Shown: positions 1 to 64,000 of the stretch, one piece after another
Layout: the number at the start of each line of letters is the position of its first letter
Position numbering within the stretch: position 1 is the stretch's first letter
Assembly (NCBI GenBank): GCA_000091205.1
Contig: AP006493.2
Length of the DNA stretch: 64,000 nt
Strand: one strand, 5' to 3'
DNA from: Cyanidioschyzon merolae
Lineage: Eukaryota
The notes under the pieces: model-generated
The model's input: the letters and a program-made list of their open reading frames with translations, nothing else
Database searches by the model: none
What the model was told of the DNA's origin: nothing
Made by a program: the position numbers and the translations under genes

Positions 1-638
1 GAGGCGATTGCTCCAACGACGCTCGTTCGAGTCCGGGTCCCTCGTCGATGCAAACCGCAGAGACTGGAGTCTCCCGGTGCGTATACCGATCGATATATCT
101 CGCTGTTGCGGAATGCCGTCTCGTTAACCGCCACGAAGCACAGAGGATTCGTCTTTCAAACGGGACTTATGATTGTTCGTGACAAGTCCGGACCACTTTG
201 GGGCAGGCGCTTGCGGCCAGGTTACCAAACGACGTCGTCGATACAGGTCTTCATGGTCAGTCCAGCGGCGCGACTGGTATTGAAACAGATACATCCATGA
301 ACGATAATGTGTGATGCTCATTTGCAACACGTCAGGAACTGAGAAGCATTGGAGGCTGCAACGTAAGCACCGGGCAGTGGTATCGGGTATTCCAGGATCA
401 CGCTTGGTGGCGGGCGTTGTAACTCATCCTGATTCCAGTGTCGTACCGAATACTTGCGACAAAGCATCGCAGGTCCCGGTCCTGAACCAAGACCCAGAAT
501 CCTGAAACGAGGTATGCATCCGGCATTGCGTATGATTTCTCCTCGAGTATCGAGACTGAGCATCCGAGAAAACGGCTGGTAAGATTTGAAGCCAGAATCA
601 CAGCGAGCATTCCAGAGCTTCACTCTAATCTGAGACGC
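1..638. repeat. Copy A of a long dispersed/direct repeat of at least 638 bp, truncated at the window start; its partner is at 24634-25271
   Basis: Positions 1-638 align base-for-base with 24634-25271 with about 10 mismatches (about 98% identity). Both copies end at the same right boundary '...cattccagagcttcactctaatctgagacgc'. The flanks then diverge completely ('atctagatcctgagc' at copy A, 'ttgcgggtgctattcgc' at copy B). The ORF-track peptides are duplicated (106..300 matches the end of 24511..24933; 124..330 matches 24757..24963; 311..505 matches 24944..25138). Confidence 0.9.
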
Positions 639-1126: not shown

Positions 1127-2755
1127 TCAGCGTCGGGCCAGCTGCCCAAGTTCCTGGAGTACAATGTTGCGCATCTCCTGTGCCGGGGCCCTCAAGCCCG
1201 TCCAGATGGTAAACTGGGCTGCGGCCTGTCGGACGAACATCTCGACCCCGTCCACTGTGAGACAACCTCGTCGCTTTGCCAGACTCAGAAGCCGCGTTTC
1301 TATTGGATTATAGACGGCGTCGAACACGAGGCAGTGCGGCTCCAGAATCTCCTCTGGAACCGGAACGACATTCACATCTGGATGCATGCCAATGGAGGTG
1401 GAATTCATCAGAATATCGATTCGCTCTCGGGTAGCAGGGTTCCTCTGCTGTTGACAAAAGTCCTCTAGTGAGAGCGCAACTAGCTCTGTCTTCCCGAAAG
1501 GACTCAAATCATTTGCGAGCGATCTTGCTCTTTCCAGGGTACGATTCACGATAGTGAGTTTGCCGCAGCCGCAGTGTACGACCCCGAAGGCGATCGCCCG
1601 TGCCGCACCACCGGCTCCCAGGAGGACGACATGGCGTCGCTGGAGTGCCGTCAAGCGAGCCTGCCCCTGTTCGATTCCGGGCATCAAGGTCTCGGATACT
1701 GCATCTACCGCTGCCTGCCAATCGGTGTTATAGCCCTTGCGTCGGCCCGTGAGCGGATCCACCACGATCGTATTCACTGCCCCGATCTGCTTCGCCACAT
1801 CATCCAATTCGTCCAGGCACTCCATGATGCGCTGCTTATGGGGAATGGTCACACTGGCCCCGCGCAAGCCAAACTGCGTCATGGTATCGAGAAACTTTTG
1901 CAACTTAGAGCCGTCCTGAACGAGAAAGGGAAGGTAGACGTGGTTCAGACGGCAGAGTCCAAAGGCGTGGTTATGGATCCGCGGGCTCATTGAATGCCTG
2001 ACGGGTGCCCCGATAACCCCATAGACTGTGGTATCAGGGTTCAGGCTATGGAAACGATAATGATCGATGAGTTCTTCGATCCGGAATTGACCCGGTGCAG
2101 ACGCCCGTGCCTCGCTCAGCGTTGTGAACGTCAGCATTGCAGGTCCAAACTTGGCGGCAAGAACTCGGCTGATCTGCCCATACTCTCCCATTCCTATAGC
2201 AATCGTAGGTTTGCTGCCAGCAGTGCGCTTCAGTAAGGCAAATAGTCGCGCGTTGTCGCACAAGTCGTGGCACATCATGGCGATCTTGCAAATATCAGCT
2301 CCGGTTGCCACGATTGCCGTGTAGATTTCAGCGAGCTCCGCTTCAGTTAATGGTCGCGTGAAGCTATGATAGGAGACGATGAGTCGTGGACGAGTGGATG
2401 CATCTTGGAGCTGGACGCTCTCCGGCATCCGAAACAGGTCCATGTTCGCGAGTTCGACGTCCACGTACTCAACGCCGTGTTGAACAGCGCGCTGCAACAG
2501 CCTCACTCGCTCGTGATCGTTCATATCGGATAAACCTCCCTCACAAACAGGACGATATGTGAAAACCATAGGCAGAGGCCGTTGATCTACTACCCGCTCC
2601 CAGGACTCCCCCTCGGCGAGGTAGTCGGCACGGAACTCGACGAGGTCAGCGCCGGCCCTTCGTGCCTCGTACATGTCGGCTATCGCTTCTTCTGCAGAGT
2701 TCGCTGTTATAGATGTACATATTAGACAGCGAATTCCTGCACCTGAAACAGGCAT
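1127..2755 (-). CDS. Bifunctional 3-dehydroquinate dehydratase (type I) / shikimate 5-dehydrogenase (DHQ-SDH, plant/algal-type shikimate pathway enzyme)
   Basis: 542-aa ORF. The N-terminal half has type I DHQase motifs ('ICTSITANSAEEAIADMYEARRAGADLVEFRADYL', 'ICKIAMMCHDLCDNARLFALLK...KPTIAIGMGEYGQISRVLAAKFG'). The C-terminal half is shikimate dehydrogenase ('VYGVIGAPVRHSMSPRIHNHAFG', 'LRGASVTIPHKQ', Rossmann motif 'VVLLGAGGAARAIAFG', 'NRT'). This matches the known plant bifunctional enzyme architecture. Confidence 0.85.
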   Translation of the reverse strand: MPVSGAGIRCLICTSITANSAEEAIADMYEARRAGADLVEFRADYLAEGESWERVVDQRPLPMVFTYRPVCEGGLSDMNDHERVRLLQRAVQHGVEYVDVELANMDLFRMPESVQLQDASTRPRLIVSYHSFTRPLTEAELAEIYTAIVATGADICKIAMMCHDLCDNARLFALLKRTAGSKPTIAIGMGEYGQISRVLAAKFGPAMLTFTTLSEARASAPGQFRIEELIDHYRFHSLNPDTTVYGVIGAPVRHSMSPRIHNHAFGLCRLNHVYLPFLVQDGSKLQKFLDTMTQFGLRGASVTIPHKQRIMECLDELDDVAKQIGAVNTIVVDPLTGRRKGYNTDWQAAVDAVSETLMPGIEQGQARLTALQRRHVVLLGAGGAARAIAFGVVHCGCGKLTIVNRTLERARSLANDLSPFGKTELVALSLEDFCQQQRNPATRERIDILMNSTSIGMHPDVNVVPVPEEILEPHCLVFDAVYNPIETRLLSLAKRRGCLTVDGVEMFVRQAAAQFTIWTGLRAPAQEMRNIVLQELGQLARR

Positions 2756-2844
2756 TAAGCGTCGTTATACCGGTGAACACACCAAGGTGTTCTGGAACTC
2801 GCAGATGTCGCGAGAGAGGCACACCTGGCGTGTGCTCAGCGTAG

Positions 2845-4705
2845 GCGCTGCTGGCCCGCCTCGTATCCCAATGTGGGATCAGCAGCGGTACGAATGCTGA
2901 ATGCTGCGGGTGTTGTTCGACGGACAGTTTCTGGCTATCGAAAGCGTTGACGCTTTTAAGGGCTACTGTTCCGCTGTCCCGCCTCGTATCCCAATGTGGG
3001 ATCAGCAGCGGTACGAATGCTGAATGCTGCGGGTGTTGTTCGACGGACAGTTTCTGGCTATCGAAAGCGTTGACGCTTTCAAGGGCTACTGTTCCGCTGT
3101 CCCGCCTCGTATCCCAATGTGGGATCAGCAGCGGTACGAATGCTGAATGCTGCGGGTGTTGTTCGACGGACAGTTTCTGGCTATCGAAAGCGTTGACGCT
3201 TTCAAGGGCTACTGTTCCGCTGTCCCGCCTCGTATCCCAATGTGGGATCAGCAGCGGTACGAATGCTGAATGCTGCGGGTGTTGTTCGACGGACAGTTTC
3301 TGGCTATCGAAAGCGTTGACGCTTTTAAGGGCTACTGTTCCGCTGTCCCGCCTCGTATCCCAATGTGGGATCAGCAGCGGTACGAATGCCGAATGCTGCG
3401 GGTGTTGTTCGACGGACAGTTTCTGGCTATCGAAAGCGTTGACGCTTTCAAGGGCTACTGTTCCGCTGTCCCGCCTCGTATCCCAATGTGGGATCAGCAG
3501 CGGTACGAATGCCGAATGCTGCGGGTGTTGTTCGACGGACAGTTTCTGGCTATCGAAAGCGTTGACGCTTTCAAGGGCTACTGTTCCGCTGTCCCGCCTC
3601 GTATCCCAATGTGGGATCAGCAGCGGTACGAATGCCGAATGCTGCGGGTGTTGTTCGACGGACAGTTTCTGGCTATCGAAAGCGTTGACGCTTTCAAGGG
3701 CTACTGTTCCGCTGTCCCGCCTCGTATCCCAATGTGGGATCAGCAGCGGTACGAATGCCGAATGCTGCGGGTGTTGTTCGACGGACAGTTTCTGGCTATC
3801 GAAAGCGTTGACGCTTTCAAGGGCTACTGTTCCGCTGTCCCGCCTCGTATCCCAATGTGGGATCAGCAGCGGTACGAATGCCGAATGCTGCGGGTGTTGT
3901 TCGACGGACAGTTTCTGGCTATCGAAAGCGTTGACGCTTTCAAGGGCTACTGTTCCGCTGTCCCGCCTCGTATCCCAATGTGGGATCAGCAGCGGTACGA
4001 ATGCTGAATGCTGCGGGTGTTGTTCGACGGACAGTTTCTGGCTATCGAAAGCGTTGACGCTTTCAAGGGCTACTGTTCCGCTGTCCCGCCTCGTATCCCA
4101 ATGTGGGATCAGCAGCGGTACGAATGCTGAATGCTGCGGGTGTTGTTCGACGGACAGTTTCTGGCTATCGAAAGCGTTGACGCTTTCAAGGGCTACTGTT
4201 CCGCTGTCCCGCCTCGTATCCCAATGTGGGATCAGCAGCGGTACGAATGCCGAATGCTGCGGGTGTTGTTCGACGGACAGTTTCTGGCTATCGAAAGCGT
4301 TGACGCTTTCAAGGGCTACTGTTCCGCTGTCCCGCCTCGTATCCCAATGTGGGATCAGCAGCGGTACGAATGCTGAATGCTGCGGGTGTTGTTCGACGGA
4401 CAGTTTCTGGCTATCGAAAGCGTTGACGCTTTCAAGGGCTACTGTTCCGCTGTCCCGCCTCGTATCCCAATGTGGGATCAGCAGCGGTACGAATGCCGAA
4501 TGCTGCGGGTGTTGTTCGACGGACAGTTTCTGGCTATCGAAAGCGTTGACGCTTTCAAGGGCTACTGTTCCGCTGTCCCGCCTCGTATCCCAATGTGGGA
4601 TCAGCAGCGGTACGAATGCTGAATGCTGCGGGTGTTGTTCGACGGACAGTTTCTGGCTATCGAAAGCGTTGACGCTTTCAAGGGCTACTGTTCCGCTGTC
4701 CCGAT
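2845..4705. repeat. Tandem array (satellite/minisatellite) of a 123-bp unit, about 15 copies, over 98% inter-copy identity
   Basis: The unit 'cccgcctcgtatcccaatgtgggatcagcagcggtacgaatgc[t/c]gaatgctgcgggtgttgttcgacggacagtttctggctatcgaaagcgttgacgcttt[c/t]aagggctactgttccgctgtc' repeats head-to-tail. The ORF track shows the same 41-aa peptide repeated 15 times in frame (2947..4833). Two SNP variants segregate among copies. Each unit contains the palindrome gaaagcgTTGAcgctttc. Confidence 0.95.
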
Positions 4706-5613
4706 CATATCAGGTGAGGACTATGATCGATACTGCGGGTTTGGAGCGCGTTTCCAGGGCCAAACAAGGGGCGTTCCGCACAAGCGGGACGAGTTGGACT
4801 TTTCTGGACGGTTGTCAAGGGCGTCGGCGTTGAGCGGTCGTACGAGTTTCTGCTTCGAGCTTGCAGAGGGAAAGCAGAATCGACATGCATATGTGACTGC
4901 GATGAGCAGATGCTTTTAGTGTTCAAAGCCGTTTGGCGAGTTGATGACGAGTTCAAGATCGTCGGTTGCAGCGTGCGCTGCTTCGTAGAGAGGAACAAGG
5001 ACACGAAAACCTCGAACTCGTTGTGGCGTGTCTGAAACCAATCGTGAAAGAAATCGCCAAGCATCGCTTCCAATGAGTAAATAATATATCGATACGAGAG
5101 GGTTCTGGTTAGCCTACGGATCGCTGTATGCTGTCTGCATGCGTGGGGCGCCTCTACAGCACCTATGAGAACGCGGCGATGCTCAGAAGCGAGTCCATGA
5201 CCTTGACATGACGCTGTGTACAGAGGACCTGAGGCTGTTCGTGAACAAGCTGCTGACTCTGGAATGCCCGTATCTCTTCAGTCTGGCGATAGATCGTTGA
5301 TCTGAACGTCCGAGTCCAAATCCTGTGTTCCAGGCACCGCAACTGGTTCAGTACCCGCAGTGCCCGCATCCCCGAGAGACATCATCGTATGTAGGACGTG
5401 GCGGGTGTCCCTGAACGCTTCTCGTTAACTAGACAACATGAGCGTTTGCGTTAGCCCCCCTACAAGAACATTTTAGCGAGTCTGGGTGGCGCCCAGAGCG
5501 CCCAGCTCGAATAATCTGCCTTTTGCGACAGCGTGGCAGCGGTGGATCCAACGCCCACTGGGTACCGGCTTCTGAAATCGCAAAACGTTTCCTCTGCGAG
5601 CGCGTTGCAATGG

Positions 5614-14160: not shown

Positions 14161-16279
14161 CAAGTGGCGGCTTTCGAGCTGGACTCGAAATCCAGGTCCA
14201 TTCAAGAATCGTCCATATCCTGTTATGGAACGGAATCGTTTGCAAGTGGAAGTCGACTGCACTCGCCGTGTCTGAATGGGCCCCGGCGGCGAGCCGGCAC
14301 GTACATCGACAAAACGCGTGCCACAGGTTGGATCACTCGGACACGAGTTGTTCTGGGCACCTTTTCGTGGCTTTCGCTGAGATGCATCTTTCGGGAGTCG
14401 TTGGAGCGCTCGCACTCCACCGATTTACCGCAGCATCCACTACAGGGCAGCGCCGGGCGCTTTCGTATTCCAGCACTGGTTTGCGTGGCTGGTTCGGACA
14501 GGCAAGTAGAACGCGAATCTCGGCGACGTCTGCAAGTCAGCTCGAGGCGTATCGACAGCGTCCAGCGGGGAGGCAGTTGATGACGCGCGCGACTGGCACG
14601 CCCGGGCTACTACCCGGGCTCATCGTCATCGACCGTACACCACAGAGCGATCGATCTTCGAATCATTGATTGGAATTCTGGCCCGTATTCGTCGCCTGTT
14701 GACCGTAAGAAATGCGATCTCCAAAGAATTAGCAGGGAGCTGTGTTCATATGCATCGATTGGAGACCATACATCCATGTGTGAAGAAAATGGAACGGGTA
14801 TACGTTCCTAACTCGGACGTAAAAACCAGATATCGGGGTTTGCTTTCCACGACGATCAAGAGAAGCCTCTGCGAAATTTTTCTATGACTGCTTGCTTTTT
14901 TCCTCGTTATCTCCGGTTTCAGTGACGCGGGTCTCTCCGTTTTCCCGCAGTTCTGTTATCAGCAGTGCATGGATGGGTGATGAGGATGACGGTGATTACG
15001 GCAGCGTTCAAGTTCCAACTGTGCTGCGTCCGGCTATTATCAACGCGCGCACTGCATAGACGGTTGCTGTGATCGACGCTGTCCTTTACATTTTCATTCT
15101 CTACATTTCCATGCTCGGTGCGCGCTTCGTAGCAGTGACTCCGGAGTTTGGTCAGGTGTTATCGTATGCTCATTACTCCGTCTTCGCCGCCGAGAGCTGC
15201 CCAGTGGTGCATGAACGATTGCTACATGGCGCGGTACGTGGCCTTGACGAGTACCGCTGGCGGTCGTCGATGCCCTCCTCCGTTTCCCGCGCCTAGCACG
15301 ATACCTTAGGATCACGGGCTTCTTCCGGGTGTATTCCCTTGGCGAGTACGCTGCCCCATTCAATAGCAGGTTTCGGAACGATATGTTGTCTAGAAGAAAA
15401 TAAGCATCGGAATGAAAATCTGCGCTGAGGAACGCAATTTCAGAATTTCGAACGGTCGACGCTCCGTTCTTGCGAAACGGTGACGCACGCTTCTCTCGAA
15501 TCGATTTCGGTGATGCCTCAAGTCCGAATCCAGGTCTCGTTTCCACGCGAGCAGCAGAGACGGGAGCATCTGCGCGCAAATCCCAGGAGAGGTATCATGT
15601 GTGTTCGGAATGCTGTTTCGTCGATGACCGGAGAGAGAAGCGAATTTGTCTTTGAAACAGAGTGAATTATTTGATGGGATAAGATTTGTGAACATTCAGC
15701 GTGGGCCAGTGAACAAATCGACAAGCGATGCCAACGAGTTGCCTAGAAACCGAATGATCGACAACCAGAACATTGCATAACACGGGCATGATACACGTAT
15801 GGCAAGGAGAAGCATCCGGGTTTTCACGAACGAGTTGGATCATCATATCGCTTCCATGACCCAGCCTTTTGTTAAACAACGTCAGGAATTATCTTGATTC
15901 TGGTGACGCAACGAGCTTCAGTATCAAAGAGTGGAAGGACCCGCTCCGGATAGACGACCGAGAACCCGACCAATATCAATGCATCTGTAAGCCCATGTTA
16001 GCGCAGTCTGGATCCGCAGGCGGTGCATCAAAGGAAACGTGCTGCGTAAACAGGACGTAGAGGAACAGATCGCCCAGTTCAGCGTACCCGAATCATCTGT
16101 CCCGAATATACCTATTTAGCGTCTTAGCGAACCAAAAGGACTTGTAGGTATTTTACTGGAAAAACTAGCCATTCGCGCGGCGATGCTCGGCGATCGCGTC
16201 CTGCGCTGGCGCCGCCCCTGCCAATCCTACTACTTCGCCATCCAGCCTGCTTCTCTGCTTTCAGCCTATCGCTGCGCCC

Positions 16280-16720
16280 ATGCCCCGTATCAGGAAAGGC
16301 TTAGCCAAGACAAAGGCAGTGGCCAAGGTAGTTCGATCGGGATCCACTCCAAAAATCCTGGCCAAGGCCCACGAGAAAGTGCGTTTCAGAAAGCCGAAGA
16401 CGCGAAAACTCGCACGAGCGCCCAAGTACCCTCGCAAGTCTGCGCCTGCGACGCCGTGGATCGATGAGTTCGGCGTTATTAAACACCCACTGACGACGGA
16501 GAGCGCAATGAAACTAATGGAAGATCACAATACGCTGGTGTTTATTGTAGACGTTAGGTCTGACAAGCGGAAAATTCGTCAAGCGGTCGCGAAGCTCTAC
16601 GGTGTTCAAGCGAGCAAAGTGAACACGCTCATTCGTCCCGACGGGAAGAAGAAGGCGTTCGTTCGATTGGCTGCCAACTACGACGCACTTGATGTTGCGA
16701 ATAAGATCGGAATAATCTAA
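16280..16720 (+). CDS. RPL23A: 60S ribosomal protein L23a (uL23 family)
   Basis: 146-aa ORF. 'KYPRKSAP', '[24 protein letters not shown]', '[33 protein letters not shown]' are near-identical to conserved eukaryotic L23a/L25 blocks. Confidence 0.9.
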
Positions 16721-23571: not shown

Positions 23572-24633
23572 AACGCGTTAGCAGTGCAGTTGCAGCGTCT
23601 ACGCAGTGCCGTTGCGTTCTTTTCGGTTTTCGACACGACGTTTCGATGCGCCATGGATTCCATCCTGCTGGACGGATACTGGTATTCGTGGAAGCGTTCA
23701 TCACCATGTTGCACTCTACTTCCAGGTTCCATGGACCGTAGTTCGTTTCGGAGGAACTGTTATCTTGTTGCTAGTTACTGGATAGTTTATGTTCGTTTTC
23801 CGCACCGTTGCAGCTAGTAAATGGTTTGTTTCTGGGCTTTTTTTTCTCGCGCAGCGAATCGATGCTATCGTATGCTTTTTAGGGACCAGTAGCGTCGCTG
23901 ATGCTGGTGGCAACCCATATCCATCGATCGATAAGGTTGTACACGTCTCAGACAAGAATGGAACGGGTGCACTTGGGTAACTCGGGTGTACAGACTCCAG
24001 TTTGGGCTCTCTTTGCTCTGTCATAGACAGAAGCTTATGCAGGACGTTGCTTCTCCGGTATCCTCGTCTTCAAATACGACGGTATCTGGGGTGCCTTCAG
24101 GTCCCTTGTCAGCAGTGGACAGGTACGAACGATGGCAGCGATACCCAAGTGCCGATTGCTCTGCTTCCGGTGCTTATCGACGACGCATTCAATGGACCGG
24201 CAAAAGATGCGACCCGTGCTGCACTTGCCGTTCCCCATGTCCTATGCATCAAGCCTTGACGTACCGTTCGCAGTGCCGGCACTTGACTGCTTGCAGGGAT
24301 TTTCATGCGTCTAGTACATGTCTCATTCTCCGCCGAGGCCTACCCTGCGGTGCTCCAAGCCTGGCTACAGAGCGCTCCACTCGATACCCGCGTTCGATTT
24401 TCGCACCCAGTGCAGTGTCCTAGGAGCACGCGCTTCTTCCAGGCGATTCTCTCAGCGAGTACGCGATCCGCTGCATACGCAAGCGCATACTCTGGTAATC
24501 GATCGGGGGTTTGCGGACTCCGATGCCGTCCCTGATGACGAAACGATCACAGCAGCGAAAACAATGCAGCAAGTTGAGAAGTATCGATGCATCGAGGCTC
24601 CCGCAGTGCAACGCGGTGACGTACGCTCCACTC

Positions 24634-25271
24634 GAAGCGATTGCTCCAACGACGCTCGTTCGAGTCCGGGTCCCTCGTCGATGCAAACCGCAGAGACTGG
24701 AGTCTCCCGGTGCGTATACCGATCGATGTATCTCGCTGTTGCGGAATGCCGTCTCGTTAACCGTCACGAAGCACAGAGGATTCGTCTTTCAAACGGGACC
24801 GATGATTGTTCGTGACAAGTCCGGTACACTTTGGGGCAGGCGCTTGCGGCCAGGTTACCAAACGACGTCGTCGATACAGGTCTTCATGGTCAGTCCAGCG
24901 GCGCGACTGGTATTGAAACAGATACATCCATGAACGATAATGTGTGATGCTCATTTGCAACACGTCAGGAACTGAGAAGCATTGGAGGCTGCAACGTAAG
25001 CACCGGGCAGTGGTATCGGGTATTCCAGGATCACGCTTGGTGGCGGGCGTTGTAACTCATCGTGATTCCAGTGTCGTACCGAATACTTGCGACAAAGCAT
25101 CGCAGGTCCCGGTCCTGAACCAAGACCCAGAATCCTGAAACGAGGTATGCATCCGGCATTGCATATGATTTCTCCTCGAGTGTCGAGACTGAGCATCCGA
25201 GAAAACGGCTGGTAAGATTTGAAGCCAGAATCACAGCGAGCATTCCAGAGCTTCACTCTAATCTGAGACGC
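24634..25271. repeat. Copy B of the direct repeat of at least 638 bp (partner of 1-638)
   Basis: See copy A. Same orientation, about 98% identity, identical right boundary, 24.6 kb apart. Confidence 0.9.
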
Positions 25272-27880
25272 TTGCGGGTGCTATTCGCAGGCCGCGGCAC
25301 ACGGCGTCAGCAAGTCGACACACAAGTGACGCACGCATGTGTGCGACCTAGAGCTGACTGCCCCACTAGCAAAGAAATGTCGTCTTGTCTCCGCGTTGTG
25401 ATCGCAGGGGCGCATGTAGCTTCGCAACAAGCGCTCGCAGTCGCCGCCGCACGCTGCTTGTGCCAGGATCGATAGCGCACCCATATTTCTGGTGCGGGAT
25501 CTATGCTGGAGCTCTTGAACCGCAGGTGCTTCCAGACGACGACAGCCTTGTCTTCGCTTGTTGCCGAGAATGAAGGCATCGAAAGAAAACTCGGACCCGG
25601 TTCATCTTTTCATACCATGAAGCATCGGAGCCGGCGCTATCGTTGTCGATGTAGCATGGAAGCAGCAGTAACCGCTCGGTGCCTCCGCTCGAGTCAATCT
25701 TCGGCCAGAGGTCTCCGAGCAGGACAACGATCACGGGGGAACCTGTGGATGAGCTGGCGCAGATCCAACTGGAACAATCGTGTTTTATGTCCGCATCACC
25801 CTGTGGATCTGGATGCGCGAACAGCAGCTTACAATCCGCGAGCCTACATTTCGAAAAGAGGTCGAAGAGGTAGCTAGATTGTAACCTGACCGCATGTTCG
25901 TCGACTTGAATCTGCCGATCAAAGGGGTATTCGCTGGTGTTTGGGCAACATTTGCGTGGATACCCGATAGAAAGTCCTGCGTCCATAAATGTTGCATGCC
26001 TCGGGACGCAAATGCCTCCGCATCGCATAGCGTAGTCCACGACAGCCTCGAATCGCACGGCCTGGCTGGTTCTCCCGTATGCAGAACGCAGGCTCTGGAA
26101 TTCGTTTTCGGGACTGCGTCGACACACGCTGCAAGACGGGCTTCCTAGAGGTGCTCCTGAGGGTTTTCGGCAGCCGCTCCACGGGCTCCTGCATCTACAC
26201 CGGAGAATTTATCGTAGTACCAGCTTGCCGATTAGACACTGCTGATCGTGGTGTTCTTCGCCATGACGACGCACGCCGTTTCCGAAGCTCTGCATCACTC
26301 GCAACTTGGAATGTGCATGGATCGAATGCGACGCCTGCGGAGGAACGGGGCTTCTCACGAGAACCGCGCCTCTGCAAGCGCACGCTTCGGGCGTTATGCT
26401 GTGATCCACACAGTTCTCTGCAGCGACAGCACCTGAAAGCAATGCGCCTCGCTCCGGCGAGCGCGCTCCAGTGGTTGCATGGGATGAACGCCACTCCGAA
26501 CAGTCGTGGGCAGAAGCGATCTCCTCAAAGCTTCCGGATGCTGACGGAATTCAGGGTACAATGTCGATAAAACGAACATGGGAACCATGTGCATAGAAAC
26601 GGTGATACAAGACATCTGTTCGGAGCGTCTGGATGCTGGTACCATGGAAGCTGCATCGTCGCTGAAGGAATCCGCGTGTCTCTGAGCACAGAAACGAATA
26701 GCAAGCCTTCTGGGAAACGAAAGCGCATGCCGCGCTGCCAGCAGCGCGCGATTCCGAGAAGCTGGCCATAAATGGACTAAAAAGATTCTAATTCTACAAG
26801 CTTTCCGCGACGTAGCCCCCGGTTGCCGCAAACGTGCGCGCTGAAGTCGCTCTTGCGTTTGCGTTTCTCATGGTGTATCGAGAGCTTCAAGCTTCGATAT
26901 TTTGGTAGTTTCTGTTCTTTCTACCGTAACAGGTAGAAGCAGCTCATGGGATATTTTATATTCCAGGGAGCCTGCATCTCTTAACTAATTTTTCGTTCTC
27001 TTTTCCCTCGACCTCGAGTCTCACTGTTGTCCACGCGAGCGTCGTTGTTACAGGGTGCCAGTCCAGCACTGTTCGCGAAATCGCCTACAGATCGCAAACC
27101 CGGTGTCCGCTGCGGTTTCCTCGGGTTTTCGTTTTCGTCCGGGGTGACGGGTTTCACGGTTAGCCACAGTCAAAGTCCCGGGTGCGGTGGCAGTTGCTAT
27201 TCGCAACGATGGCTTCTCGGAAGAGTCGACCGCTCCCGGCACACGGACTCGAAGTCGGACGTGCGCTGCTTCTAAACCTGCGCGCGACTTGACAAGGCCT
27301 CAGTTCTGTCTCCTTCCAAGTTAAGCGTCCTGAGCACTAGTCCAAGAAACTTGTCCGCTAGACTAGGGTACAAGCTGCTCATCGCGACTGGGCGAAGCAG
27401 ACACCTCTGAAGGTGTCCGAGTGCTTCGCGTTTGACGCACACGTTTCCGACGGTCACCTGGCCTGCGCAGCTGTTCAAATGTAGTAGAAGGCCTAGAGAG
27501 CATCGCGCTGGAGAAGCCGCAGTGTGGAACCGTGCCCGGGAGCAGGCTTCCTGGCTATCGCTGGCAGTCCAGCGTCGTTCGCGTCGGGTACGGCGCCTCA
27601 GTACTTTAAGAGCGGGCTATTCGCATCAATAAGCTTCCGCCCAGGAGGCAGTTTTGCTCGTCACCATCACTCTAAGCGGAAAAGTTTGATCAGTGTTCTT
27701 CAATGCCGGCATAAGAAAAGCCTTCGCTTGACGCCTGTCCAATGGTTTGCTGGCGGGGGCCACGGCACGAGCGCTCCTCAATAGCATGGACTTGCTGCCT
27801 TCGTTTCTTTCTACGAATTAGTTTTCATGAACCGAAACGGATTTCCCCGGAAACGCGACGGCTGCTGGTGAATAGCGGCG

Positions 27881-27897
27881 CCGCCCCCCCCCCCCCC
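27881..27897. repeat. Homopolymer tract: 14 consecutive C (ccg + C14)
   Basis: 'gcgccgcccccccccccccccagt', read directly from the sequence, in a gene-poor stretch. Confidence 0.95.
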
Positions 27898-29679
27898 AGT
27901 TATCTGGATGCAGCTCTATGGTTGCACCAGACTCTGACTGTTGGCTCCTGAGCCTCAGAGACGTGATTCATGAACACAGCAGCTGTCAGGGTACCGCGCT
28001 CGTTGCGCCTCTATAGTTGCCATGCGGAGACGTAGCGGCTTTTCGTATTCATTGTGGGCGTGAGCCCGATGCAATCAATAGCGGAGTTCCCTGCAACACG
28101 CTCACGGACTGCATCAATACTCGCAAAGACCAACTTGAAGATGAGGATCATGAACGCTTTCAAATCGTTTCTAGGTCGATCACGAGGTGCTGTTGACGAT
28201 ACATCAGGCTCGCAGGAACGCCTGGGTGTACCGGAATGTCGCGGGCTCCGATGCTTCTGCGAGTCAAAGCGGACGCGGTGCACCTCTGACACCGCTCACT
28301 GCTTGTCCGCGTGACGTACCGTTGGCGACTCGTGTGCTATGTATTTCAAGTCGTTCACAGGTTTGCGGGTATGCGCGTGTGCAGACGGCGGATCCTCAAG
28401 CATGCGGCACCGCTTGAGCTCCCGTCCAAAGACTTAAACTACATCAAGTGTCCGACTCGTGGCAAACTCCCACTGCACTACGCGCGTATGCGCCGATCCG
28501 CGGCACCCCCAGCACGTGGCTGACATTCTGCAATGGATGACGTGCCTTGATTGCGTGTAAAGTTGCGCTATAGGATCTGGGATCCTCACTCTGTCAGGAA
28601 TATGGAGGGCAACGCAGTAGATACACGATGAATTTCAACGGACCGCGGGTAGCGAGCACCAATTTGATGGGGTGTTCTGTCCGACGCTTTCGGGGTTTGT
28701 GGAACGTGGCCGGCGCGTCCGTCTCCCATTCGCTGGATAGCGAGCGTCGCTGTATTCATGGACGCTGGCGTTGGACGCACCACGCGCCTTTACGTATTCG
28801 TGTCTCGCTCCCGATGATGGTGCCTGCGGCTTGCGTAAACAGACGCACGCCATCACAGAGTGTGTTAGACCAAAAGCCGCGGTAGCTTTGGTGCGGGTCT
28901 TGGAATCGCTCGACTCGTTCTTCTAAGAATACGAATCGAATCGCATTTCATTTCCCGGGGATGGGCGTTTATATGGATGGTACAGGTCTCACAATGCACC
29001 CATGCAAAGAAGTTGTAAAATTGGAAACATTCAATTGCGACAAGAGTCTACAGAAAACTCGCAACGCGAAAAGCGGCGAAACTTTTGGAGATTCTTGCAT
29101 CTACCATCCATGGCATCCGTTGCCATGGTCGCTGGCACCACCTCTGCGGAAGCTAACGCCCTGTATCGTCGAGCTAGAACCGCAGGGCGGCGTCAATGCA
29201 AACTTGTTCAGGGCGCTACTGGATTCTATCTTCCGGGCGCAAGGTGCGGCTTCTGGCGCTGACCACGGCACAAGCTGATCAGATGACGCTGCAGAGTCCT
29301 CGCGCCAAAATTTGCAAGTCGCACAGCTCTATAGCGATACCCGAGAAGCCACAAATACAATCAAAGATAGAATTCCAAACCACGGGTCGTATACCTTTTC
29401 ACGAAACCTGCAGCAAGCGCGCACACACGCTTCGACATGCGGATTCCGAATGCACTGGGTCGCACCTCTAAACACGCTGCGGCTGCAGCGTGCGAGTCGA
29501 GTGCGCATACACGTGCCTCGAAGGCGTAGGGCTTCCCACCAAAAACCCAGTAGGCGTGCTTAGCTGCCGTGAGCGTCGGCACCGCTGCTCATGGTGGTGT
29601 ACAGGCCGCCGCACCTATAGGTCCCGCACGCACGTTTCTACGGCAACCTAGGCGCGGGCGAATAAACGCATCAGTACGC

Positions 29680-30687
29680 TCACAGAAACTTGTCCCGTGC
29701 CGTCGGTGAGTAGACTCCCCCAGGTGCTGGTCTCGAGAGCGAGGTCTCTCGAAATTTCCCACGCTGACGTTTCCAATACGAAGGGCTCAAAAACGCGAGC
29801 GTCCACCAGAACTGCAAGGCCACCACTACGACAAAGGAGACCTTGGTGGACCAGGCGGCAGCTGGATGCGGGAGCACCTTATAAAATAGGATATAGGGGT
29901 ACCAAACGATGCGTATGCCGAGCCAGCTGGCATAAAAAAGAACCTCAAACACCCAACCGCCTCGAATGTTTCGGCGCAGTAGGAGAAACAGCGTATTCAA
30001 TTCAACAATAAGGATATCCGCGGTTATGGCGGTAAAAGCTAGCGCCAAGGACGCCAGATCCCCGATCTCGAAGCAGCGCGTGGTCACGCGTCGACACTCT
30101 CCAACAAGGTTGGCCAGTCGCAGAAGAGCCGTTGTCGGCTGCATGAGCAACACCATCGCCACAAGGTGATGCACCAGAATGGCCCACGGTTGTTTCACGA
30201 TGTAGGGCGCAAACAGAATCCACATTGTGTCGCTCAAAAAGTACAAGTCAGCGTAGACCACGAGCGTTGCATGCACCCACACACGGTCCGTAATCATGCT
30301 CGCAACAGATAACAGGAAAAGCATGGGGATTTGTGCCATGTTCACATAGTCGTGGATGCGCGCACCCAGCCCAGGCCGCCACACCTCTCGGGTCGCTATT
30401 CGATCCCCGGAGCCAGGTTCGGACGTAGCGTCGGCCCCGTCAGAAGTGATGCCTCTCAACCCCACCATACGAACATTCTCACTGTTCCTGGACTTGTCCA
30501 TGGTTCGCACGCTGTCTCCGGTATACAACGGAGACCTGCGCGTACGCCTCTTCGGTGCTTTTATCGCTGCCGTGCGGAGCGCGCGCATCCGGGCTGCGCC
30601 TGTGGCACCGCAGCGGCGCACGCGCCACGTAAGCGAAGCGAAGCGTTGCGATGCGTCGCTTGCGCAGGCGGAGGCACGCGCATCCAA
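29680..30687 (-). CDS. Multi-pass membrane protein (at least 5 predicted TM helices), possibly a TLC (TRAM/LAG1/CLN8)-like domain protein; function unknown
   Basis: 335-aa ORF. Hydrophobic segments 'IPMLFLLSVASMI', 'VWVHATLVVYADLYFL', 'PWAILVHHLVAMVLLM' (conserved HH inside a TM helix, as in TLC domains), 'LASLALAFTAITADILIVELNTLFLLL', 'WVFEVLFYASWLGIRIVWYPYILFY', 'VSFVVVVALQFWWTLAFL'. The true start is probably an internal Met (MDKSRN... or MAQIPM...). Confidence 0.45.
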   Translation of the reverse strand: MDARASACASDASQRFASLTWRVRRCGATGAARMRALRTAAIKAPKRRTRRSPLYTGDSVRTMDKSRNSENVRMVGLRGITSDGADATSEPGSGDRIATREVWRPGLGARIHDYVNMAQIPMLFLLSVASMITDRVWVHATLVVYADLYFLSDTMWILFAPYIVKQPWAILVHHLVAMVLLMQPTTALLRLANLVGECRRVTTRCFEIGDLASLALAFTAITADILIVELNTLFLLLRRNIRGGWVFEVLFYASWLGIRIVWYPYILFYKVLPHPAAAWSTKVSFVVVVALQFWWTLAFLSPSYWKRQRGKFRETSLSRPAPGGVYSPTARDKFL

Positions 30688-31991: not shown

Positions 31992-33881
31992 ACAGACGAT
32001 TTGACCGATGGTATCGGTATGTACCTGCACGCTTGCGCGGGCTGAAGGCTTCACTTTGCGAGTACGAGTGCTCTGCAGCCTCCAGGTTATCGCACAGTCT
32101 CCAGCAGATGCGCTTGGCATATGCAGGAATCTGGACGATTCAGTTTCTGGATGATTTACAGAAAAGCGAGGCACATTGAATACCCTTGTCGGAATAAGAC
32201 GGTACTGGGGTGTCGGACACCGGCGAATAAGGTCAGTTTTTGGTCTCTTCCAATGATCAGAAGCATCAGCCTCTGCGGACTTTTTCTGGGAGTTCGTTCC
32301 TTGAACACTCGCTGCTCTCCGAATTGGAATGCACTGGCGTCTCCTGTCTCTCTCGCTTCGTTTTCAGCATTCGAAGGATATTGATGACAGCGTTCTAGTT
32401 CCGATTTCACAACCTTGAGCTGTCGTTGACGTATTTCCTGTACATACAAAACCTGCGATCCGCGGTTCGCCCGCCATTCTCATCTTGAGTGAACACCGGC
32501 TCGGTGCGCCCATTGCAGCGGTGACACTTGGACATGCTCAGGAACGAGTAAATGTCGATCGGGCCTGCTCGTGCTCCCCATCGAGGCTTCACCCAGTGGC
32601 GCTTGAAGACTTGCTTAATGGCTCGGTACATGTACTTAAACAGCGCAGATGGGTCAACTGGATGCCCTCTTCCGTTGCAGCGCCCATGCACGCTCTGCGG
32701 TCGCGGGCATCTACTGGGCGATCTCGTCGGTGCAGACGCTGTCTGCTGCACAAATACATGTACGCTGTTCGATTCGATAAAGAATTTGTGGCACGAGATG
32801 TTGCCCGTGATGAAATAAGTACCGGAAAAGCACCATCCCGGCTTGAGAACAAGTCGAGATGACTCGATTCCTCTATGTAGTCTTCGGGCAAATCGGTGAC
32901 CCACGCTCTACTCGACGCGATCACTTCGATGAATCAAGTCCGAGCCCACGACCCGTTTTTCACACAAGCGGAAGCCGTATGAGCCTCGGTATGCATAAGT
33001 TTTGTGGGATATGATGCTTCTGTTGGATTCCGTCTCGTCCATGGTGACAATCGTATGAGGATTTGTGGTTCGAACGGAGTCGCTTATTTGGTATGCCAAG
33101 TCCCGGTACGGTTCGGCATCAGCTTATGAACAATCATCATGCGACGACGTAGAGTACCTTTATCGTCATTCAACGGCGCCACTGGTGTTGCCCGCGATTT
33201 GCCTTCAAACAGAAAGACAGATAAAAGAGAATGAGTGAAGTGAGTGTGTTACATGAAAGGAACTAACAAAACCGGAGAAATGTACATATGATTTGGATAG
33301 TCGCATAGTTTATTTTACAAAGCCTCTCTTCAGGGACGTCACGAATCCTCTTGATTCCGGTGACGAGAAGAGTTTCGAGCAGCAATGCGTTGAAGGTGCC
33401 ACCCGAAAAAGCGACCTTGAATCATAGAACGACACATACATCCGTTATGCCTTTTTGCTGTAACTAGAATGTAAAGGATCCACATCTTAAGAGACGGTCG
33501 ACGAAAACTCGAGAGGCTGGAACAGAGTGCGCACTTATGGATTCCGTTTCAATCTGAAGCGGGTGCAGAGGCTCCGACAGGTACGCACTGGTTGCAGTGG
33601 GCGCTGACATGCTCGTCGGCCAGGCGCAAGCGTACCTAAGTGTACGCCATTCCTCTTCCATGCGAGGCGAAGTCGTCATCGGAAGATCCTGGTCACGATC
33701 GTTGACATCTGTGGGACGCGTCGCCGCACGGTGTTCTCTACCACGACTGGCTGCCGGCATATCGATGCAAGAACAGAAGCGATAGCCAAGGAGCATCATC
33801 TCGTACTTCATTTTTAGCGGTGGCGTCTTCGTAACGACCCGAAGCTGTGCAAAACGCTGCTGGGCAAAGGCGTCTGCCTAC

Positions 33882-35549: not shown

Positions 35550-38474
35550 CCAGGCGCTGGCCTTATCTCCCCAGAATCAAACACGACTCGGGACAGCAAA
35601 CAAGATCTCGTGTCGCGGGAGAAATGCCGGCGGCACAGCGCCCGATTCGGCAGCTGCAGCGGCGGCCGCCTGTGACGTGTCGGCCGGCACGCCCCCCGCA
35701 CGGATGCTGCTCGGGGCGTTGCACACAGGCCACGCTCGGATACACGTGCGTGGCTTGGTATCGGGGAAGGGGTGCTCGTTCCTCGACAGGTATGTCTGTG
35801 TCGTGATTCATCCAGAGCAAAGTTGTCCTCGGGAACGGAGGTTATGAAAAGCAGCGAACAGTCGGCTGCCCGCTATCCGTAGATCGCTGCAGTGTGAAGC
35901 GCCTCGTCTCCCTGATGGTACAGCGTGCGTGGGTACCGAGCCTTCTGTGCAGAATGAGCAATTCAGCTTGACTCGTGGTGGAGTCACGTTGCATCTGCGG
36001 AATGGTACTTTATGGTCGAGAATCGCTCGATCCGAGCGCATATCGTACCCGCATGATTTCGTGAACGCTGCCAGATGACTGCAATGGTGCGGTGTCGGTG
36101 TCGGTGCGGCACCTGCTGCTGGCGACCGCTTCCAAATGTACGCTGTGCGCGGGATTTTTTTAACGTATGTGCTTCGTATACCAGTCGATGATGGCGGTGC
36201 TTTGGCTTTGAATTGGACAGCCATTGCTGGTATATTTCTGTCGGAATCGTGGACACAGACTGGCCATCCGTCGATTCCAGCGGGGGTTTCCGTGGCGCGC
36301 CCGCTAGACCCGTGTCAGATGCATACGGAACCCTGAACTGCTTGTGCGGTTCTGGGCTTTCAATTTGGTTCCGAATTTTTGATGGACGTACGGCGTCGGC
36401 ATTCCAAGTGCAGTGAGAAGCGCATACGGATGCATGTGAGGTTTTAGGGTCGGCGCTCGTGTTTCCGGGGTGTCTGGTTCGACGCTCCGCCGCTGGAGTT
36501 CATCACGCTAATGGAATCACGATGATTCACAAGGTCATCGAACAGGAGTTTGTAACATTACCGGTACCGCGATCCCATTCATAGGTAAAAGCTTCTACTT
36601 GTCACTGTTCTTTACGAGCAGCATGCTCAAAGAATACATTTTTCCAGTTTTCCAATTTTCCGGTGCATGGCAGCTCGTGGGCGCGGCAATCGGCGTCGCT
36701 GGATCGTCCAGGGACAAGAGCTCTCTGTCGTATCATAAGAACATTTTCATATGCACATGCAGCACGGTTATTGAGCTTGTCACGTCAAATGCTCGATGCC
36801 GCTCAAGAGACGAACCTGCATGCTTTTCTCGGCCATCGACGACAGAGCATTCCACAGTATCATTACATCTCTGGCGGCGTACGCTCCGAGAGCCTCCCGC
36901 TTCTTCTTTTCGCATGGCAAAGTGCCTTGGACCTGCTCTTGGGTCATCGCAGCGATCGCTGGCAGCGGAGCGTACGTTAACGCCTCGCACGAAGCAACTG
37001 TAAACGGTTCGAAGTTTCCAGACTTGATGGCCGACCTGGGTTTTCCTCTCGGTACTTGTTTCATCACCGACAACACAGCGTTCCACAAATATTCTATCGA
37101 ACCGAGCAGCGTGCGCTTGCGCGTGGAGCGGACAGCGTACTCGCGGAGCGGCGTGCCACAAGAAGCCCGTGATCGGAGGACACGGCACCGGGCGCCGTAA
37201 AGGAAGCGGTTATCGAGGCGAGCCTTCGGTATCCGTTCATGGCATGAAGCGAGCGACCCTGCAAGCGTTCACGCGCCCTAGAACGGTTCTCGGAACAGGA
37301 GCAGGAGCAGGCGAGTTCGACCGACGGGTACGCCCAACGACAGGCACGTGTTACCATTGCGACCGGCGCACCGAGGCTACATACGAGCAACATGAAAATA
37401 GCAAGCGAGCTGTACATCGCTACGCGCACCTGTACATGAACTGCGTCGTGAACAGCTGGTCGCAGCTGTCTGGAATTGAACGCTGCCATCAACATCCATT
37501 GACTGCTAACAATAGAGCTCGAGCGAAAGGAGAGCCAGGTGTGTGTCAAGCTGGAGATAAGAGGGAAGCGGCGGAAGCAGTCCCAGAAAAAGTCCGCAAA
37601 GGCTGGTTTTCGTTGTTCTGGGAAGAATTTGCGATGCTCGAGCGCGTACGCCCGAGCAAGACACCTCGACCCATCCATGGTGTTCTGAAACGGTCAGTGC
37701 TAATAGCTGGTGCGCTTTGCAATCTTTGATTGCTGCGTATGCAAACCATACATTTAGTGACGCACACTCACATGTCAGGAAATGCCATGCGCCCATCGCA
37801 CTCACAGCACCAGAGAAGTTGTGTGCGCTGAGACTCGCAAAGTCGCCCAGCATGATGGCATCCATCTCTATCTGTGTATCCATCCTTGTCTAGCTGAGCT
37901 GCACTCCAGAGCGTCCAGAATACATCAACTTCCTGGTGTTTTTCCGGACTTGTGTAACCTGAAAGGAATGCTCCAGCTGTTCATATAGACACGATTTCGC
38001 CGGAAAACGCCTCCAGGGAACACGCCGTAGAAAACAGCGCGGCGTTCGCTCAACTGCGAATAGCCCGCTCGCTGGCAAAGCACAGCACTGGCAATGACTA
38101 GTTGCAATCGCTGGCGTTGTCGCGCTCGAGCGATTTCCTCGTGACCCGAAGAACCCAAGTTTACTCGACAGGGGACTTGAACCGAGCCATAAGGCAATCG
38201 CTCTCTTGGGGTCCTGCAACCACCGGTTGCGGGAGAGTCTTCAACGTTTGTCTGGGCCTGTTTTCCTCGAGTAGAAGATTATTTCCCGCAAGCAGTGCAG
38301 TATACGGAAATCGTCGACCAACCGCCTCTAGCAAGCCCGACCACTGTTCCAAAGACGAGGTCAGCGCAAACACCGGCTGCGATGACCCACGGGTTTTGCG
38401 CTGAACCTGGCTGCTGCACTCCGTCGTGAGACGATCGCGTTGTAAACACCCGAGTTGAACCAGGTCATGAGCGC

Positions 38475-41697: not shown

Positions 41698-42696
41698 TAC
41701 AGCATCGCCTGATGGCGCGCGTCCAGCCAGCGACCCGAAGCATACCGCCGTGCTTTGAGGTGCGTCTTCACGTTTCCGTTAGCCCGAGTCACGATTCCTC
41801 CTTGTGAACTGAATTTTGGTCGTTCCGTTGACGCACTGGAAGAGACATGGAAACCGGATAGCTTTGTGAAACACTCATAGGCGTTGCGTGGAGGCATGGC
41901 TGACCTGGCGCGAGGCTGGGTCTCTCTCGGTCGCAGCTCCGCTGAGCAATAAATCGGCAAAGCCGTTGGCCACTGCGTGCAACGACACGGTGTTGGAACG
42001 CTGCAACTGAGGCAAATTTCGGGTATTGGGCGCCTCTCTGTCTTGTCCTGCTTTTCCTCAGCCAACAAGAACTGCGTTGCGGTGAAGTCGCGCGAGTCGC
42101 ACTGCAGCGCTTGCCACGACGCAGCGCACATAGCCCCAGTGCAGCAGTCGATTCCTTCGCGCCCTCGGAGTTTGCACCACAAACGTTCCCCCGTTTCCAG
42201 TCTTGTGATACGCAGGCACCACCAGGGGAGCGATCCCTACCACCCCTCGTCCATGGTGTACGTGTCCGCCGGCTAGTAGCGAGCCCCCGCGACACCCCGC
42301 AGCGCAAACGCGCGTGAATACGGCAGAACACACGAAATGACCATTTCGTCTGAGATCGATCATGGAGCAATGGACGCGTTCCCCGACTGCCTGCGTATCC
42401 AGGATGCAATCGAATTCGCGTGTGGTGCGCGCACCCGTCGATCGATACAACCCAGAGAGCGTCGATTTGGCGCGAAACACACCAGATGGCGCGATGCTGG
42501 CTGCACAGCTGGCGCCATCGGCGATCGGGCGATCCAGCGCGGCCTCCTGGGTTCCTGTCTCTCTCGGGCACAGCCACCTAGATACATACACAGAAACGGG
42601 GACAGGGTGCTCGCAGCGGCTCTTCCAGACTTGATTGACCAAAGACAAGTTTAATCTTAGCGTCGATCCGCAAGCCTGGGGGTTCCTGTAATAGGC

Positions 42697-63030: not shown

Positions 63031-64000
63031 TTCGGTGAAGCGTCTGCCAGCTTGAGGTGTTTGGCTCTCTTACACCGTGCGCTTACGCTGATCGAACCAA
63101 CTTGGTACCTTAAGCACGTCGTAAATCGTCAACCAGCTGCCAACACGTGTACTCTTGGCGGCCTTGTACCGGCGTCGCTGGAGCCGCACCGCCCCAGGAG
63201 TAGAACGCTTGTCCTGGTTATGCCAGTGCCAACTGCTCCTAATGGTGTGTGCTCCACAGCGTACTCGTGACAAATAGCAGTCACCAGTAGAATGTCATGC
63301 CATTATAAAAACAACGCTAGGCACAAGAACGAGCCTTATTGTCATTTTGGCGACTACAGCACCGAAGCGGGAAACCTTCCCGACACCTTCAATACGTCGA
63401 GCAGTAGGAAGTGCAGGAACGAGTCCAGCGCTCACGCCTTCATTCATCGGGGGATAAAATGGAACAGGTCCAGCAGCTCGGTTGTGGGCGTCCATGTTCA
63501 GGGGTCGCTTTGTATTCTCATCATCACCAGACTCGGCAGGCTCTTTTTGCGACTGATTCACGCTCTTCTCTAGTGTAGCCTTTCAGCTCGGTTTGGTTTC
63601 ATCCACGTTGGAGAGTAAAGCAGGAGATCGAAATCACGATGCAATATTCCGTATAGATCGTAGACGGATTGTCTGTAGGATATATATTCTCTAGTGAACA
63701 GTGAAAGGAGAACCGCAATCATCATCCTTTAGCTCTGCCATGCCACGGTGCTAAGATAGTTGAGGAACACTGGATGAACGAAGTACATGCGTTCTGCGCC
63801 AAAAACCGATATTGTGAATGACTGCTGTTGTTCAATGGTGGATAACGATCCGCTGATCACCACACGGAAAGCAAAAGTGAAGATAACAGCCACCAGGGGC
63901 GTGCCTGTTTCTCAACAGCTTGTTCGTGTGGTCCTGAAAACACTGGGATACAGTCGCAAAAAAGGGTCCTGGTTCATACACAGCCAGCTTCCATGGGAAT

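Follow-up and report, generated by a model that had tools for sequence, protein, structure and literature searches.

The direct repeat that brackets a block of housekeeping genes in Cyanidioschyzon merolae very probably consists of two paralogous, non-autonomous, and non-coding relics derived from a Fanzor1 element (copies A and B), which have most likely been made or kept alike by gene conversion. The repeat lies in a stretch of 64,000 nucleotides from contig AP006493.2 (assembly GCA_000091205.1), referred to hereafter as the window. The evidence comes from the extent and ends of the repeat, from older copies of the same family in the window, from the remains of a coding sequence on the opposite strand, and from the comparison of the copies among related strains.

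Results

Extent and ends of the direct repeat

Alignment of positions 1–638 with positions 24634–25271 of the window revealed an ungapped, collinear match on the same strand with 628 of 638 nucleotides identical (98.4%), on which MAFFT, a repeat finder, and BLASTN agreed. The spacing from copy A to copy B is 24,633 bp, and the ten substitutions are located at copy A positions 3, 95, 131, 167, 168, 192, 193, 429, 530, and 549. These values reproduce those given in the first-pass annotation of this DNA (638 bp, about 98% identity, about ten substitutions, 24.6 kb apart). The identical right boundary that it described was also recovered, since both copies stop at ...CTCTAATCTGAGACGC and no relatedness is found past that point. 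At BLASTN sensitivity, the 64-kb window contained no further copy of the 1–638 segment besides A and B.

The proposal that copy A is cut by the window start and reaches further upstream was borne out by contigs of relatives, taken from metagenome (JGI, ENA) and Logan assemblies and corresponding to strains 99.5% identical to the window, in which the remaining 672 bp of copy A were located upstream of the window start. In contig L009, the copy-A locus can be aligned with copy B along 1,162 bp (99% identity), up to the B-equivalent position 24110. In contigs L018–L025, the left boundary of copy A corresponds to B coordinate 23962 (AACGGGTGCAC...), and the preceding flank is unrelated to that of B. 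Most of the relatives' contigs carrying the DHQ-SDH gene end 30–213 bp inside the right edge of the repeat, as expected from assemblies breaking at repeats, and L009 reads on.

The unit was defined as 23962–25271 (1,310 bp) from the points where the flanks of A, B, and a third copy (X, described below) diverge. Copy B (23962..25271, minus strand) is a complete unit that reads AACGGGTGCAC...TCTGAGACGC in window orientation, and copy A (1..638, minus strand in coding orientation) represents the right-hand 638 bp of the unit, that is, the 5′ part of the element. The left end common to A and B is AACGGGTG..., and the right end common to A, B, and X is ...TCTGAGA(C/T)GC. The flanks of the three copies are unrelated to one another on both sides, copy A being bordered by GGATAA and ATCTAG and copy B by GAATGG and TTGCGG. 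No target-site duplication or terminal inverted repeat was found at the junctions of A, B, and X, and the ends do not show the TG..CA structure either.

The annotation had also considered that one copy could be an assembly artefact. Such an origin of the A/B pair is unlikely, because the copies differ at ten positions, because three of the four junctions (all except the right one of B) were assembled independently in metagenome or Logan data (A's right junction in L001–L013, A's left junction in L018–L025, and B's left junction in L014 and L015), and because one 22-kb contig of a relative spans from inside copy A to inside copy B. A metagenome scan with a pattern beginning 7 bp beyond the shared unit, within the flank of B, returned contigs of the B locus exclusively.

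A third near-identical copy upstream of copy A

The gene upstream of copy A in strain 10D, located through Cyanidiococcus synteny, is BAM80611.1, which encodes a 660-aa TIGR03492/lipid-A-disaccharide-synthase-like protein. Eight contigs of relatives containing this gene presented element sequence on both of its sides, corresponding to the left end of copy A and to a third near-identical copy, X. Copy X is located one gene upstream of A, 356 bp beyond the 660-aa gene and in the same orientation; its right end is that of A and B, and unrelated sequence follows. X, A, and B are contained within ~28 kb, all of them co-oriented and separated by intervals of 2.7 kb and 24.6 kb.

Immediately outside the element, the right flank of X (L018, 2919–2968) contains a perfect palindrome with a 9-bp stem (AGAACGCAT-tcgt-ATGCGTTCT; fold z −4.1), which, instead of being a target motif, may signal the 3′ end of the adjacent gene. 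A flank hairpin was discarded as a target signal for being inconsistent among copies: strong at X (z −4.1), weaker at A, and not present at B. A different arrangement was observed in contig L011 (JGI 3300057248, Ga0556024_00864), where a zf-AN1 gene and a 413-aa ORF precede DHQ-SDH in place of the Dymeclin-like gene, which suggests that the locus has been rearranged or belongs to a different lineage. Downstream of DHQ-SDH, this contig still has the junction with the element.

Genes between copies A and B

The ordinary cellular genes listed in the annotation between both copies were all verified. DHQ-SDH (1127–2755, minus strand) is an ORF identical to BAM80612.1/XP_005536648.1 of C. merolae 10D, the two large ORFs are Dymeclin-like and CAF1-like, and RPL23A (16280–16720), mS5, and kelch-BTB are also found between A and B. 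The satellite, with a 123-bp period, occupies positions 2727–4748 between DHQ-SDH and the Dymeclin-like gene, and consists of ~15 in-register copies with 98–99% identity; one frame of the array is open over 628 codons. The A-to-B contig of the relative is ~1.6 kb shorter than the corresponding interval of the window, which suggests that the length of the 123-bp array differs between strains. Scans of the window with Rfam (gathering thresholds) and for tRNAs found nothing, and the repeat is therefore no RNA gene. A region of ~4.4 kb right of copy B (25272–29680) contains no ORF longer than 210 codons, being unusually empty for such a compact genome, and resembles neither of the repeat families nor any other part of the window.

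It is reasonable to consider, as the annotation did, that the 24.6-kb interval could be deleted or duplicated by way of the A/B pair; the same could happen to the 2.7-kb interval through the 1.3-kb direct repeats. Deletion of the 24.6-kb interval would take out RPL23A and mS5, and would hence presumably be lethal. All the related strains sampled keep the reference arrangement around A and B.

Older copies of the family in the window

A search with copy B as query in nhmmer revealed three additional full-length copies in the window, at 14.7, 32.2, and 36.3 kb, which had been overlooked in the first-pass annotation along with the coding relic on the opposite strand. Copy C (14746..16083; E 1.7e-63) lies between the CAF1-like ORF and RPL23A and is 55% identical to B, and copy E (32197..33575; E 1.8e-61) lies between a thioredoxin-like ORF and the ORF at 33882–35549; both have their coding orientation on the minus strand, the same orientation as B. 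Copy D (36291..37692; E 5.8e-65), with its coding orientation on the plus strand, is inverted with regard to A, B, C, and E and contains the best-preserved gene relic. In addition, a family fragment at 63442..63570 (minus strand) corresponds to the 3′ end in coding orientation (family HMM positions 42–175, E 7.1e-9).

The old copies C, D, and E are 54–58% identical to B and among themselves, and each of them almost fills its intergenic spacer. Their ends match those of B to within ~20 bp: the nhmmer alignment of B to the old copies spans from 23915/23944 to 25284/25287, and the ends of A, B, and X are located ~7–22 bp from the family-level ends. A 9-bp inverted repeat is present at copy B (CGTCTCAGA at 23944–23952 and TCTGAGACG at 25262–25270), with an 8/9 counterpart in D. 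Copies E and D, 64.5% identical in self-BLAST, form an inverted pair at both sides of the lone ORF 33882–35549 (minus strand), which has no Pfam hit.

Conservation along the element is flat, and neither codon periodicity nor an excess of synonymous changes was present in the family in any frame, so the old copies look as if they were decaying neutrally. The syntenic 21.6-kb locus of Cyanidiococcus yangmingshanensis gave no hit to the family, and its spacers are ~1.3 kb shorter at the sites of A and C; insertion of the copies in the C. merolae lineage would fit these data.

A gene relic of probable Fanzor1/TnpB type

On the strand opposite to the orientation used in the annotation, the element retains, in decayed form, the C-terminal third of a Fanzor1/TnpB-like gene, with the translation ...KPVI.GHGTG...GEPSV.VK.MYRA...HLTT.KCHHCERRTE...DRSFRLY.KC...RNRNLNAAIN. 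The family consensus motif (HLTTVKCHHCERRTE...DRSFRLY.KC...RNRNLNAAIN) is partly kept in C, D, and E and degenerate in B, and it contains the Fanzor motif of Bao & Jurka, [TS][TS]-x-x-C4 zinc ribbon-x(5,50)-RD, which covers RuvC-II, the zinc ribbon, and RuvC-III. Copy D retains an ORF of 233 codons (37028–37726; KKPVIGGHGTG...GEPSVSV...TGTCYHCDRRTE). When this ORF was compared with 1.84 billion representatives using HMMER, 30 hits were obtained: 27 short relics elsewhere, the ORF itself, and two intact proteins, namely P0155 (756 aa), which was hit directly, and P0164 (551 aa), which has a 692-aa cluster-mate, P0171. The long relatives carry GLDPGRVNLYT ... EHYTTQKCHRC ... CEHC ... RNRDFNAAINI, which corresponds to the D/E/C4/RD constellation of TnpB/Fanzor.

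The reverse-complemented family consensus aligned with residues 416–666 of P0171 (E 4e-26), and a profile of the intact proteins matched the element at nt ~790–1350, with iE values of 1e-13 to 1e-8. Among the individual copies, the relic was detected in C at 15126–15323 (minus strand; E 1.9e-8 to P0155) and in E at 32299–32685 (minus strand; residues 590–754 of P0155, E 4.6e-9), where the motif reads KCHRCNGRTE...NAVINI. The relic of copy B is weak (24397–24501, minus strand; residues 457–491 of P0171, profile iE 0.005) and contains several in-frame stops. Furthermore, P0171 and the published Fanzor1 protein CMe-1 could be aligned collinearly (27% identity, E 1e-7). In Pfam, domain PF07282 (OrfB zinc ribbon/Cas12f1-like TNB) ranked first, or was the sole match, on P0164, P0166, P0169, P0171, and P0173. 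Its scores there (23.4–25.8 bits) fall just short of the cut-off of 26.3; a ~70-aa insertion interrupts the match in the intact relatives, and the window consensus scored 14.7 bits. NCBIfam gave nothing, PDB sequence and profile searches with the intact relatives and the consensus gave no meaningful match, and the AlphaFold model of P0171 was poor (pLDDT 36.5). Motifs, sub-threshold Pfam scores, and pairwise and profile similarities together indicate a predicted origin of the family in a Fanzor1 gene, encoding a eukaryotic TnpB-like protein with RuvC and zinc-ribbon regions.

No protein similarity was found in the first ~790 nt of the element in coding orientation, a part that includes all of the 638 bp first described. 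A complete ORF including RuvC-I is absent: the N-terminal two thirds are missing and every copy in the window is riddled with stops, so the window copies cannot make a nuclease. No intact member of the family was found in C. merolae-like contigs. An exact look-up of two repeat ORFs (165 aa and 186 aa) returned no record, a query with six ORFs of copy B returned nothing, and a scan of bacterial and archaeal genomes and viral contigs for the element terminus gave 0 hits. A 290-codon ORF on the plus strand of a crude majority consensus was discarded as a frame-hybrid artefact, with no Pfam or PHROGs match, codon periodicity, or synonymous excess.

The closest intact relative is the P0171 gene (3344–5422), located on the 6,177-bp contig L017 (ENA ERZ27315599 k141_70426; 55% G+C) in the neighbourhood of genes for an RNA ligase, 2H-SAK, and Peptidase_S74, a virus-like context. 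The family HMM also matches this contig at the DNA level (E 7.7e-12). The intact gene and matching G+C content of this virus-like contig hint at a viral source of the lineage, for which L017 could be either the source or a carrier.

Relationship to CMe-1A and other known systems

Nozaki et al. (2007) described 253 copies of a 3.2-kb interspersed element in C. merolae, with a truncated ORF weakly similar to WSV486 of WSSV (PMC1955436). Later, Bao & Jurka (2013; PMC3627910) reported CMe-1A, a Fanzor1 element of 3,169 bp that lacks inverted repeats and whose target-site duplication was given as unknown, in ~150 copies, along with ~70 copies of the 635-bp TE-N2_CMe; their list of Fanzor1 elements also includes one from WSSV. 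CMe-1A and TE-N2_CMe are probably the "novel interspersed repetitive element" of the former study.

Membership of copies A–E in CMe-1A was expected from this literature and had to be discarded. The 3,169-bp CMe-1A consensus, taken from the supplement of the paper, did not match copies A–E in nhmmer or BLASTN searches, and the CMe-1 protein did not match A–E or their consensus in tblastn. The same consensus matched other segments of the window, at 47344–47903, 48777–49133, and 51312–51827 on the minus strand and at 41800–42158 and 23632–23797 on the plus strand (E 2.5e-33 to 6.7e-6). Since the CMe-1A consensus matches these segments and never A–E, the family of A–E appears to be a second, distinct, and older Fanzor1-type family of C. 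merolae. Regarding the CMe-1A segments themselves, those at 51312–51827 and 48777–49133 look like one decayed ~3-kb copy, the ORF-poor region at ~47.2–52.0 kb looks like a solo 5′ module plus that decayed copy, and the fragment of ~165 bp at 23632–23797 lies directly left of copy B.

The two families share several traits: they inhabit the same genome, are intergenic and Fanzor1-derived, lack terminal inverted repeats and detectable target-site duplications, and consist mostly of decayed copies. In addition, the CMe-1 protein and the intact relatives of the present family share the collinear motifs IETDGV / DPG..N / NRDFNAAINI. On the other hand, the unit is 1.31–1.4 kb long here vs 3.2 kb for CMe-1A and 635 bp for TE-N2_CMe, and the old copies are 54–58% identical to each other whereas CMe-1A copies are ~80% identical to their consensus.

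With Fanzor1/TnpB (OMEGA) systems, the family shares the C-terminal RuvC-II/zinc ribbon/RuvC-III relic, including [TS][TS]xxCxxC and R[ND]xNAAxNI, and with TnpB-only elements the lack of target-site duplications and inverted repeats. Unlike the nucleases of IS200/IS605-type elements and eukaryotic transposons, the window copies do not contain RuvC-I, and they are not accompanied by TnpA or another transposase. The 5′ flanks in coding orientation (ending in CGCAA, TAGAT, and TATAA) show no clear consensus from the three sites.

Gene conversion among copies X, A, and B

Orthologous X copies from different strain groups (L018 vs L020, L021, and L022) differ at 25–26 of 787 sites (~3.2%), whereas the unique 2,330 bp adjoining X differ at 6–11 sites (0.3–0.5%) between the same groups, so that divergence is ~10-fold higher within X. 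Moreover, X is 98–100% identical to B only from position 24110 rightwards; to the left of this position, and for ~55–75 bp, identity is only ~60–75%. The alignment of X to the family HMM starts at 197, vs 102–112 for B and A, so X is a truncated copy, and several contigs of relatives break exactly at 24110. Copy A also presents a mosaic pattern, with alleles at six sites that are reciprocal, X-like or B-like, between 10D and L009. These comparisons were made on short-read contigs, in which chimeras inside repeats are possible; each X haplotype was found in two to three independent assemblies.

The excess divergence of X over its flanks, the identity tract ending at 24110, and the mosaics in A indicate, in this comparison of strains' contigs, that X, A, and B undergo non-allelic gene conversion. 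Conversion rather than a single very recent transposition is the most likely explanation for the near-identity of A and B. As conversion needs similar partners, A, B, and X must already have formed a subfamily of similar copies beforehand, and a comparatively recent event of local copying or transposition may have given rise to the cluster. With conversion acting on the copies, a recent insertion need not follow from the 98% identity, a point that the annotation missed.

Discussion

The data can be accommodated in the following model. The family would have descended from a Fanzor1 gene, with each unit keeping ~520 nt of decayed C-terminal coding sequence together with the 3′ end; this relic would be preceded by ~790 nt without recognisable coding, in which the 638 bp of the first description fall. 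The copies would have reached intergenic sites by insertion, as judged from their unrelated flanks, their shared ends, and their absence at the syntenic sites of the sister genus, and the linked, co-oriented copies X, A, and B would have been made or kept near-identical through non-allelic gene conversion. The housekeeping genes between A and B would be bystanders. Concerted evolution of linked paralogous repeats by this mechanism is known in tandem gene families and in some transposon copies. The present case resembles it in that orthologous copies are more different than their flanks, alleles are shared in a mosaic fashion, and an identity tract ends within an older copy; it differs in that the repeats are relics of dead transposons, separated by 2.7 and 24.6 kb and located in a haploid and very compact genome.

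The main alternative account, in which a non-autonomous element that can still be mobilised by a transposase in trans would have transposed or hopped locally very recently, conversion being a minor overlay, is possible but doubtful. It would explain why A, B, and X stop at exactly the same right terminus, and A and B also at the same left one, ~7–22 bp from the family-level ends, and why the copies are clustered and co-oriented. The 9-bp inverted repeat of B, with its counterpart in D, could also be taken in its favour, but the left arm lies outside the A/B unit, which starts at 23962, and hence does not mark a mobile end. Target-site duplications are missing, stops abound in the copies, and C. 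merolae-like contigs provided no intact member; furthermore, recent transposition leaves unexplained both the end of the X tract at 24110 and the ~10-fold higher divergence of X with regard to its flank. A variant of the conversion model itself, in which breaks produced by an active Fanzor in trans would trigger the conversion that homogenises the dead copies of this second Fanzor1 lineage, as in a homing-like, TnpB-style "copy retention" through homologous repair, is quite improbable.

Same orientation, high identity, and a single 24.6-kb spacing would also be expected if ~24.6 kb had recently been duplicated in tandem, with the copies as the edges of this segmental duplication, or if the assembly had duplicated the sequence. 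The annotation had offered the former as one of its readings, and it is now very hard to sustain: homology is confined to the 1.31-kb unit, self-BLAST finds no other duplicated segment, the unrelated flanks of A, B, and X diverge immediately, and the unit has its ends in common with three old family copies elsewhere. The ten A/B differences and the three independently assembled junctions stand likewise against assembly duplication. The chance that the copies are LTRs or solo LTRs of a retroelement is practically negligible, as only the direct orientation and the similar length class are suggestive of it. The annotation had correctly set aside the LTRs of an intact retroelement, there being no gag/pol between the copies; in addition, the ends are AACGGG...GACGC (AACGGGTG...GAGACGC) instead of TG...CA, no target-site duplication exists, the unit contains a TnpB/Fanzor-type relic, and the C. 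merolae genome has no LTR retrotransposons according to Nozaki et al. (2007; PMC1955436). From the remaining pair of options given there, a dispersed non-autonomous family stands, given the old copies and their shared ends, and a solo LTR falls, given the Fanzor relic and the lack of TG..CA ends.

With the copies taken as conversion-homogenised Fanzor1 relics, the same-orientation repeat around housekeeping genes would amount to two insertions of a dispersed element and not to a special locus architecture; the A/B pair would be an ordinary outcome of a dead dispersed transposon family within a known class of repeats. To this can be added that this family is other than the CMe-1A already described in C. 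merolae, and that concerted evolution is seen among its linked copies. With conversion active between linked copies, the identity among A, B, and X is unusable as a clock. Direct repeats of 1.3 kb with 98–99% identity break short-read assemblies at predictable places, and they might undergo non-allelic recombination in C. merolae, a model alga in which homologous recombination is used for engineering. Finally, C. merolae is cited as a near transposon-free organism (0.7%, plus 5% of "WSV repeats"). About 10% of the window corresponds to a second family derived from Fanzor, which goes undetected with the published CMe-1A consensus, and the repeat content of C. merolae may therefore be under-annotated.
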